This document shows, one piece after another, positions 18,167-20,857 of a DNA stretch of 64,000 bases. The stretch is from positions 22,859-86,858 of the forward strand of contig JAYTOE010000067.1 in assembly GCA_043747935.1 (NCBI GenBank). The letters run 5' to 3'. A program made the position numbers and the translations under genes. The notes below the pieces were generated by a model that did not search any database, was not told the DNA's origin, and saw nothing but the letters and a program-made list of their open reading frames with translations. The stretch is from Akkermansiaceae bacterium. GTDB lineage: Bacteria > Verrucomicrobiota > Verrucomicrobiia > Verrucomicrobiales > Akkermansiaceae. Each line of letters begins with the position of its first letter. Position 1 is the stretch's first letter.

Positions 18167-18269
18167 GGAGTGGGTGTGTTGGGGTGGGAAAGCGACGATT
18201 CGGATGGGATCAGGTATTGGGTAGAGGCTAGGGAATGAATCCGGCGAAGCAAGATGAGAATGCCGAGAA

Positions 18270-18317
18270 GCACAGTATGCGGTGTTAAAAATCCGAACCA
18301 CATACTAGATATTGTGT
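18270..18317. promoter_or_regulatory. Tandem NrdR-box-like sites between smc and the divergent TPR gene
   Basis: ATACTAGATATTGTGT (18302-18317, 14/16 to ACACWATATATWGTGT) and GCACAGTATGCGGTGT (18270-18285, 11/16), 32 bp apart. Confidence 0.6.
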
Positions 18318-18418
18318 ATAAGGGTAATTTGGGAAACCTAAGGATTTTGTCGGTGATGTCTTCTTTCCGGGGAAAATGGGCTTGCGGAGTAAGGGTTCGG
18401 TGATACACACAAGGTCTG

Positions 18419-20857
18419 ATGCAAGAAGCCTTTACGCGAACCCAAGCGCGTTTCAGATGGGTGATGATGGCAGGCTTAGCGGCTTTCACGCTCTGCCGTG
18501 TCATGGCGCAAGCTCCCGAGGATCCGCAATTCGATCCCTCGGATGTCTATTTCCAAGCGTATCTGGAGGTGAGAGCCGCCGAACAGCTTGAGAAGGATGG
18601 CGATTTTCTAGGTGCTCTCAAAAAATACGAGCAGGCAGGGAAACTGTTTGAATCTGTGGGGAAATTTTATCCGGATTGGAAAGCGGGGATGGTGGGCAAC
18701 CGGCGCGACCTTACGACGAAGGCGATCGAGGTGGTGCGCGGGAAAGCGGGGGAACAGTTTAAAAAGGAAAGGGGCGTGATCGCTGAACTGGAGGGTGGGG
18801 TGAAGGTCGGCGCGACGCCCGATCAGGAGACGGCGATGATACCGCAGCCTGCCAATCCCGGTGCTGCGCCTAAGCCGCCGACGAGAACCGAGCCGAACAT
18901 TCCGGAAGTCCCTTCGCGTGGAATCCTTGAGGTGAATCCGCTTCAGGATCGCAGGCTGAAAGATGCGGAGGCCGAATTGGCTCGGCTCAGGAAAATGATT
19001 TCCGAGGCAGATGCGAGGAGCAACGATGCGATGCGCAACGCGACACGCCTGCAGGACATTCAGCGACAGAACGAGGCCTTGGCGCGGCAACTCAAGGAGG
19101 CTGAGGCAAAGGCGCAGGCGAATGCCGGAGCAAATGAAGCGCAGGCCGAGGTGGCGCGCCTGAAGAAAATGATTTCGCAGGCCGACGCGAGCAGCAACGA
19201 GGCGATGCGGAACGCGGCGCGTGTAGAGGACATGCGCAAACAGAATGACACCCTGTCCCGTCAGCTTCAGGCGGCAGAGGGCACCGTCCAGTCGCTGCGG
19301 GCGCAGATGGCCGCCGCGCCTGTCCAGAGCGAGATGGAAGCGCTGAACAAACAGATCGAGGATCTGGAGCAGGAGCGCGAGGCGATGGGGATGGCCCTGA
19401 GAACCAGTCGCGGCCAACAGACGGAGGCGCTTTCCAAGATCGAGATCCTTGCCGCGGACATGGAGATCATGAAGAAGCAGGCTGAGGAGCTGCGACAGGC
19501 CGAGGCGAACCTAAACCGCAACCTGAAGAAGGAACGCGAGGTGGCGAACGATGTCGTGAAGGGGCAGCGCAAACAGATGGATATGCTTGAGAAAGCGCTC
19601 GGGGAGAAATCCAAGGAACTCGAGGACGCGCAAGGTCAGATCGCCTCGTTGAAGAACGAGTTGGAGGAAAGCCGCGACGCCTTCGACGAGCTGCGCGAGG
19701 AACGTGACGGCCTGCTGCGCGAGCGCGACCAGATGGCGGCTTTGCTGAAACTGAGCGAAGCCGACCGCACCCAGGAACTCATCGAGCAGAACATGGGCTT
19801 GGCGAAAGACCTGCGTGAGGCCAACGAGAAGGTGGAACGCCTCAACAAGGATAGCAATTCGGCCAAGGATGACATCGTGGATGCACTGCGTGACCTCGCG
19901 ATTGCGAAAAGCCAGATCAACCGACTCCAGACTGAGAACCGCGAGCAAACGAAACGTCTGGAGGATTTGACCGGAAAGCTGAACGGGGAAGAGGCCGCTC
20001 TGGCGAAAGGCGAAGTAAACGCCGATCCTGCGGAAGTGGAGATGCTGCGCGAAGTGATCCGCCGCCAACTCCGTGTGCAGGAGCACAGGAGGCAGGCGAA
20101 AGAGGTGATTGTCGATGCGGCGAAGCAACTCGCCAAAGAGGACGAAACCCTGAACGAAGCGATCGAGCTCTTCGTCGGCGCGGAGATGGCTCTGACCCCT
20201 GAGGAACAGAAACTGGTGGCCGACCAACAGGTTGACGGTGAGTTCGTTTCCCCTTTCGCAAGGGATCGCAATACGGTCGGACGCGCCACATCCGATTTGA
20301 ACCGCGAAATGGAAAGTTATGACCGGGCGGCCACGAAAGCCTACCTGGCCGGCAGGTTGCTACCGACTAGGGAACTCTTCGAACTCATGGTCGAGCAAAA
20401 CCCGGGTCACGTGCCCGCTCTTTGCAAACTCGGTGTCGTGCAACTGAAGCTGGATGATCCCATATCCGCCACAGAGAGTTTCACGAGCGCGGTGGAGCTG
20501 GATGCCAATAACCCCTACGCACATCGGATGTTGGGTTACGCACATCTCAGGGGCGGTGATTTCGCTGCGGCGGAATTGCACGTGAAGCGCTGCGTCGAAC
20601 TCGCGCCCGACGACGCCATAGCCTATCTTTTGCTCGGAACCATCGCATACCGTCTGGGTGAAACCGACGACGCCGAGGGGTATTTCAAATCGGCGATCAC
20701 GGCGGATCCCGTTCCAAGCGAGCCGTATTTCAACCTCGCATTGATCTACGCAAAGAGCGGTCGTCTTCCAGAAGGGAGGGAGCTTTATCACAAAGCCTTG
20801 GAAAGGGGAGCCCTGCCCGACCAGTCACTTGAAATGAAACTGGAGGGCAAGCCATGA
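18419..20857 (+). CDS. Exported coiled-coil protein with C-terminal TPR repeats
   Basis: Signal-like N-terminus, long heptad region, TPR helices (ALCKLGVVQL, AHRMLGYAH, PYFNLALIY); exact start uncertain. Confidence 0.85.
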   Translation: MQEAFTRTQARFRWVMMAGLAAFTLCRVMAQAPEDPQFDPSDVYFQAYLEVRAAEQLEKDGDFLGALKKYEQAGKLFESVGKFYPDWKAGMVGNRRDLTTKAIEVVRGKAGEQFKKERGVIAELEGGVKVGATPDQETAMIPQPANPGAAPKPPTRTEPNIPEVPSRGILEVNPLQDRRLKDAEAELARLRKMISEADARSNDAMRNATRLQDIQRQNEALARQLKEAEAKAQANAGANEAQAEVARLKKMISQADASSNEAMRNAARVEDMRKQNDTLSRQLQAAEGTVQSLRAQMAAAPVQSEMEALNKQIEDLEQEREAMGMALRTSRGQQTEALSKIEILAADMEIMKKQAEELRQAEANLNRNLKKEREVANDVVKGQRKQMDMLEKALGEKSKELEDAQGQIASLKNELEESRDAFDELREERDGLLRERDQMAALLKLSEADRTQELIEQNMGLAKDLREANEKVERLNKDSNSAKDDIVDALRDLAIAKSQINRLQTENREQTKRLEDLTGKLNGEEAALAKGEVNADPAEVEMLREVIRRQLRVQEHRRQAKEVIVDAAKQLAKEDETLNEAIELFVGAEMALTPEEQKLVADQQVDGEFVSPFARDRNTVGRATSDLNREMESYDRAATKAYLAGRLLPTRELFELMVEQNPGHVPALCKLGVVQLKLDDPISATESFTSAVELDANNPYAHRMLGYAHLRGGDFAAAELHVKRCVELAPDDAIAYLLLGTIAYRLGETDDAEGYFKSAITADPVPSEPYFNLALIYAKSGRLPEGRELYHKALERGALPDQSLEMKLEGKP

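Follow-up and report, generated by a model that had tools for sequence, protein, structure and literature searches.

A probable paired NrdR operator upstream of smc is conserved among the Verrucomicrobiales

Why would a pair of boxes of the type recognized by NrdR, a zinc-ribbon plus ATP-cone repressor that senses dNTP levels, stand upstream of smc rather than of a ribonucleotide reductase (RNR) gene? About three quarters of bacteria have NrdR, which is being studied as an antibacterial target, and the E. coli and S. coelicolor proteins bind heterologous boxes. The paired operators of RNR genes consist of two partly palindromic 16-bp boxes, both of which are needed for binding, and the NrdR tetramer binds them when loaded with ATP and dATP but not in other nucleotide states (PMC13584703; PMC9110341). 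A recent study of E. coli and P. aeruginosa concluded that NrdR controls essentially RNR genes only; box pairs separated by whole helical turns were found only at reductase operons, with no non-RNR gene having more than one box, and the oligomerization mechanism of NrdR has been suggested to be specific for reductase genes (bioRxiv 10.1101/2025.03.28.645925). A sequence-only reading of a 64,000-nucleotide stretch of DNA from an Akkermansiaceae bacterium (the whole stretch is referred to here as the window) had noted two 16-mers, matching the NrdR consensus at 14/16 and 11/16 positions and starting exactly 32 bp apart, in the divergent region between smc and a TPR gene, and had proposed that one of these two genes belongs to the NrdR regulon. 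Our literature search found no paper that links NrdR to smc or describes a NrdR regulon in Verrucomicrobia. The analysis described here reproduced the sequence and scores of the two 16-mers, and the comparative evidence largely supports membership of smc in the NrdR regulon. We consider it likely that the 48 bp at 18270-18317 form a true paired NrdR operator of the smc promoter, and we infer NrdR binding, repression rather than activation, and a nucleotide signal acting at smc.

Table 1. Features of the smc upstream region and its flanking genes (positions in the window)
Feature	Position	Strand	Remarks
smc, chromosome segregation/condensation ATPase, 1257 aa	14393..18166	-	TIGR02168 SMC_prok_B
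Predicted smc 5' untranslated leader	18167..18224	-	hairpin at 18197-18211, GATCCcatccGAATC
Predicted smc -10 hexamer	18225..18230	-	TAGCCT; 16 nt after -35
Predicted smc -35 hexamer	18247..18252	-	TTGCTT; conserved spacing after box B; MAFFT peak TTGC
Putative NrdR box B, proximal to smc	18270..18285	-	16-mer GCACAGTATGCGGTGT; ACACCGCATACTGTGC in smc orientation; 11/16 to consensus ACACWATATATWGTGT
Linker between boxes	18286..18301	.	16 bp; sequence not conserved among relatives, length fixed at 15-16 bp
Putative NrdR box A, distal to smc	18302..18317	-	16-mer ATACTAGATATTGTGT; ACACAATATCTAGTAT in smc orientation; 14/16 to consensus ACACWATATATWGTGT
Conserved element of about 26 nt upstream of box A	18322..18347	-	here AAATCCTTAGGTTTCCCAAATTACCC; order-wide consensus GCAAAtTnnTTnAGnnnnCCtAAAtACC
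Divergent coiled-coil/TPR gene	18419..20857	+	adjoins smc in few relatives

The two boxes lie 104-151 nt upstream of the smc start, inside the 252-bp gap between smc on the minus strand and the divergent coiled-coil/TPR gene on the plus strand (Table 1). Their starts are separated by 32 bp, or three helical turns, and the linker between them fits the published spacing of 15-16 bp (or 26-27 bp) that keeps the two boxes on one side of the DNA helix (PMC13584703). A mutational study from 2026 identified six critical positions in the NrdR box, C4, A6, A8, T9, T11 and G13 (PMC13584703), and box A has all six. In its arrangement the site resembles the operators of E. coli nrdAB, nrdHIEF and nrdDG and of S. 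coelicolor nrdAB and nrdRJ, which likewise combine a box pair with an unconstrained linker of 15-16 bp. It differs from these operators in its target, which is smc and not an RNR gene, and in its proximal box, which retains four of the six critical positions and deviates at positions 6 and 11 (G6 and C11).

Genome scans for NrdR boxes yield many false positives (bioRxiv 10.1101/2025.03.28.645925), raising the question of whether the smc match arose by chance, or whether another regulator, with a site resembling a NrdR box, acts there. For a single box this objection holds, since one match of at least 14/16 per genome is expected; one was found in this genome, compared to a mean of about 1.25 in locally shuffled genomes, which is not significant. 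A pair with matches of at least 14/16 and at least 11/16 at a distance of 31-32 bp, in contrast, occurred once in the genome and not at all in 20 shuffled genomes.

An independent matrix led to the same site. Box 1 was cut from 68 nrdB promoters of relatives (54 unique sites) after being located by the conserved linker anchor TGTGAATAATTTG, not by the NrdR consensus, and the resulting matrix reproduced the six published critical positions. A scan of both strands of the 4.35-Mb genome with this matrix returned only two paired loci of at least 14 bits. The smc site ranked first (27.4 bits), just above the genome's own nrdB promoter (C202:3073, 26.2 bits), and box A was the best single box genome-wide (23.7 bits).

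Phylogenetic footprinting of smc upstream regions, gathered from 30 related genomes and 80 public contigs, revealed that the pair is widely conserved. With the nrdB matrix, 84 of the 106 Verrucomicrobiales regions had a pair of at least 14 bits before smc, nearly always at about -150/-118 from the smc start, whereas none of 207 control regions of equal size from the same loci (0/106 coding and 0/101 far-upstream) contained one, the best scoring 0.1 bits. All 84 sites above the threshold had a linker of 15 or 16 bp; four further regions had strong pairs at a spacing of 30 or 33 bp, about ten regions fell slightly below the 14-bit threshold at the same position, and in about six relatives (L014, L033, L093, L111, L129 and L132) the boxes were absent altogether. 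A MAFFT alignment made blind to the motif showed peaks of conservation at the core positions of the boxes and at the downstream TTGC, with none in the linker. Other families and classes of the phylum were represented by 40 genomes, eight of which also had pairs of 19-31 bits upstream of smc. Given this conservation, the result with shuffled genomes, and the presence of the same motif and spacing at the nrdBA, nrdJ, nrdD and nrdR promoters of the clade, it is very improbable that the smc pair arose by chance or belongs to a different regulator.

Because the boxes are about equidistant from the two start codons, 104 nt from that of smc and 101 nt from that of the TPR gene, their position could equally point to control of the divergent gene. 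The smc assignment is firm, with a score of 1020.9 bits against TIGR02168 over residues 2-1232 (cut-off 567.35) and with both SMC_N and SMC_hinge domains in the product. A homologue of the TPR gene adjoins smc in only about 10 close relatives, and among 80 box-bearing loci with a callable upstream gene, crudely called as the longest open frame within 700 bp, this gene was the TPR gene in nine, another divergent gene in 35 and a co-directional gene in 36. Another gene therefore lies upstream at 71 of the 80 loci, and it is clear from these gene orders that the operator accompanies smc whatever lies upstream, the TPR gene not being its conserved partner. We favor smc as the target since the boxes stay with it irrespective of the upstream gene, and the conserved -35/-10 pair, as predicted, is also directed towards smc. 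Of the two candidate targets initially proposed we thus retained smc and rejected the TPR gene, whose control by the boxes we regard as highly unlikely.

The layout of the region is shared across the order. Read towards smc, it consists of the conserved upstream element, 4-6 nt, box A, the 15-16-nt linker, box B, 16-17 nt, TTGnnn, 16-17 nt, TAnnnT, a leader of about 45 nt that contains a small hairpin, and the ATG. Of 83 unique smc operators, 62 have a promoter-like TTGnnn/TAnnnT pair; box B and TTGnnn are separated by 16-17 nt in 60 of them, and the TAnnnT follows the TTGnnn at 16-17 nt in 57. Relative to the promoter predicted in the window, whose transcription start would lie at about 18218 on the minus strand, 7 nt past TAGCCT, the box centers fall at about -60 and -92. 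The -35 and -10 hexamers of smc are predicted from conservation alone, and a strict σ70 consensus scan called no promoter in the smc upstream region. Three metatranscriptomes matched the window, with a few short contigs of low depth that lay within coding regions and none that were intergenic.

A hairpin occurs at the same position of the leader in relatives with a different stem sequence (e.g. GCCCActtccctcTCGGGC and CGATCCcgttcGGATCG), suggesting that the smc leader hairpin is a conserved structure; an Rfam scan of the intergenic region, including this hairpin, gave no match. The element upstream of box A keeps its fixed distance of 4-6 nt from the box throughout the order, whatever the upstream gene; it might be bound by a second regulator or act as an upstream promoter element.

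The position of the boxes bears on the direction of regulation. The characterized RNR operators lie over or after the core promoter, unlike the smc operator, which is placed 16-17 nt before the predicted -35 and neither overlaps nor follows the core promoter. Box centers 5' of the -35 are unusual for a repressor, and the center near -60 resembles the position of a class I activator, raising the possibility that the operator is real but that NrdR activates or fine-tunes smc. A precedent might be the NrdR box of P. aeruginosa topA, which was reported to act positively (PMC4409342), although RNA-seq did not bear this out (bioRxiv 10.1101/2025.03.28.645925). The nrdB operator of the clade, which is expected to be repressed, is likewise located upstream of its -35-like element, with the same layout one helical turn closer: the gap from the box to the TTG was 6-7 nt in 49 of 64 nrdB promoters. 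Because the nrdB operator shares this phase-locked layout, we argue that NrdR would act in the same way at smc and at nrdB. We also know of no activation surface on NrdR, a further point against activation, which we therefore consider unlikely.

The weakness of box B could be taken as a sign that the operator is ancestral and still works in relatives but is decaying here, with no useful NrdR binding to a box B that lacks A6 and T11. Box B scores only 6.5 bits with the nrdB-derived matrix, its orthologues are usually stronger, and the proximal boxes of the two closest relatives are also weakened (L006, CCACCACATCATGTGC; L007, ACACCGCATAATGTGG). Both A6 and T11 are important for NrdR binding, and an A6G change in both boxes weakened binding of the E. 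coli and S. coelicolor proteins 4-10 fold (PMC13584703). However, the second box of the genome's own nrdB operator (C202:3073-3120) is even weaker (3.3 or 9.1 bits) and lacks G13, and this weak half-box is conserved across the family. As a poor second box has been kept at nrdB, the NrdR of this clade appears to tolerate one poor box, which suggests that the weak box B reflects tolerance rather than decay. With the best box of the genome at position A, and with spacing and promoter geometry intact, we judge decay of the operator to be distinctly unlikely, and a working paired operator remains our preferred reading.

The proposal called for nrdR in the same genome, which is a 94%-complete bin of 320 contigs. 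Family searches with TIGR00244 (NrdR) and an ATP-cone model found no match in the assembly, an absence that at first appeared to refute the proposal but turned out to be an artefact of the assembly. Contig C310 begins inside nrdR and has the first 25 codons of the gene on its minus strand (C310:1-77, MRCVQCGSLKDKVLDSRSSKDGTTI), explaining why the family searches missed it. These 25 residues are identical to the NrdR N-terminus of a relative (L287), and two other relatives differ at one residue; nrdR is thus present in the genome and truncated by a contig end. Full-length nrdR was found in 37 of 41 relatives and in 78 of 81 Verrucomicrobiota genomes, and since the gene is nearly universal, comparing its presence with that of smc boxes across the phylum is uninformative.

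The reductase genes are similarly affected by a contig end. A family search for the reductase large subunit had no match in the assembly, and nrdB lies on the 4.9-kb contig C202, the end of which interrupts the operon before a complete nrdA. In relatives the operon order is nrdB-nrdA, and the promoter upstream of nrdB has two boxes 32 bp apart; no boxes were found directly upstream of nrdA, as expected from this order, in which the boxes precede nrdB. Between nrdB and the expected position of nrdA, C202 carries a gene of the 23S rRNA intervening-sequence, four-helix-bundle type (C202:4370-4897) and, where the contig ends, short tandem repeats, which together probably explain the break in the assembly. 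The same insert between nrdB and nrdA was observed in a relative (G015, locus L037).

The smc site resembles this nrdB-nrdA promoter in its motif, in its 32-bp spacing and in its orientation towards a TTG -35-like element, and the two scores given above are similar. The nrdB operator differs from that of smc in having a highly conserved linker (TGTGAATAATTTGTGG), which resembles two DnaA boxes, in having a half-box as its second box, and in its shorter gap to the -35 (6-7 nt compared to 16-17 nt).

On these grounds the following mechanism can be proposed. A NrdR tetramer loaded with ATP and dATP would occupy both boxes, three helical turns apart, just 5' of a σ70-type promoter (TTGCTT-N16-TAGCCT). 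When dATP is plentiful, NrdR would lower smc transcription, and when DNA synthesis drains the dATP pool, smc would be released together with nrdBA, such that SMC would be made together with ribonucleotide reductase. That NrdR lowers smc expression at high dATP is the likeliest reading because only the ATP/dATP tetramer binds paired boxes.

To determine which other promoters share the arrangement, 40 relatives and this genome were screened for exact occurrences of the pattern CNANATNTNG-N21/22-CNANATNTNG. Judged by their positions and annotations, the 25 loci found comprised nine RNR operons (nrdBA, nrdJ and nrdD), four nrdR promoters, five smc promoters and seven singletons, whereas the reversed control pattern had no matches in the same genomes. 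The pattern has no match in this genome, where the proximal smc box deviates from it. The singletons were located upstream of a HD-domain gene, upstream of a PIN-PhoH gene, inside a permease gene and next to a transposase, with three of unknown context. Apart from RNR genes and nrdR itself, smc was the only recurrent target. The perfect paired boxes directly 5' of nrdR (G011:C22:28042-28083, G029:C1:1544124-1544165, G039:C9:39394-39435 and G040:C271:2266-2306) imply that nrdR may be autoregulated in parts of the order.

A broader and more tentative interpretation, which we think possible but would not expect to hold, is that NrdR in Verrucomicrobiota is a regulator of the replication cycle beyond RNR, with the paired operator controlling SMC and thereby coupling the capacity for chromosome compaction and segregation to the ATP/dATP ratio. 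The same interpretation would draw on the single or paired boxes that precede dnaN, a HD-domain gene and nrdR in some lineages, and the phase-locked position 5' of the -35 would indicate that repression works otherwise than by the promoter occlusion of E. coli, perhaps by blocking upstream contacts of RNA polymerase or by wrapping of the DNA. NrdR boxes have been proposed at topA in Pseudomonas aeruginosa and at dnaA in Shewanella (Rodionov and Gelfand 2005, as described in PMC4409342 and bioRxiv 10.1101/2025.03.28.645925). Like the smc site, these are NrdR-type boxes that precede genes concerned with DNA topology or replication, suggesting a regulon that reaches beyond dNTP synthesis. They differ from it in being single boxes, each in one genus and with disputed effects, whereas the smc site is a canonical pair conserved throughout the order and beyond. 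As an operator the smc site is typical of the NrdR-box family, and its novelty lies in its target and in the breadth of its conservation. If our reading is correct, smc would be a new member of the NrdR regulon and its operator the first well-supported paired NrdR operator outside RNR genes, providing a direct transcriptional link from nucleotide supply to the machinery of chromosome organization and segregation.

Several additional observations concern other genes and genomes. The third best box in this genome (contig C62:10728-10743, CCACCATATCTTGTGT, 20.5 bits) is a single NrdR-type box about 108 nt upstream of dnaN, with only a weak half-site 31 bp further upstream. Within a sub-clade of eight genomes that includes this one (L255-L262), seven have the box at -107 to -113, and the other members of the genus lack it. 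The DnaN query used for this comparison contained only the first 47 residues from the genome, with an approximate tail; its matches are still true DnaN proteins, with 91% identity to the genome's copy. In L093 (CAZREM010000001.1), smc is directly preceded by dnaN; the 102 nt between them contain no boxes, and the two genes may form an operon. The HD-domain gene with perfect paired boxes (L292:1501-1542, genome G025) possibly encodes a dNTP hydrolase; this locus and that before the PIN-PhoH gene (L296:1501-1542, genome G039) are each single occurrences.

Six small, complete genomes of 1.9-3.2 Mb (G055, G070, G082, G091, G103 and G118) represent a sister genus (g15) in the same family. The SMC N-terminus had no match in any of the six, TIGR02168 had none at E values of at most 1e-5 in the four that were searched (G055, G091, G103 and G118), and nrdR is kept in all six.

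Finally, the linker of the nrdB operator (TGTGAATAATTTGTGGATAC; C202:3089-3108 in this genome and loci L135-L214) is almost invariant across the family. It resembles two tandem DnaA boxes (TGTGAATAA and TGTGGATAC, compared to TGTGGATAA), suggesting that nrdBA may be under the joint control of DnaA and NrdR.
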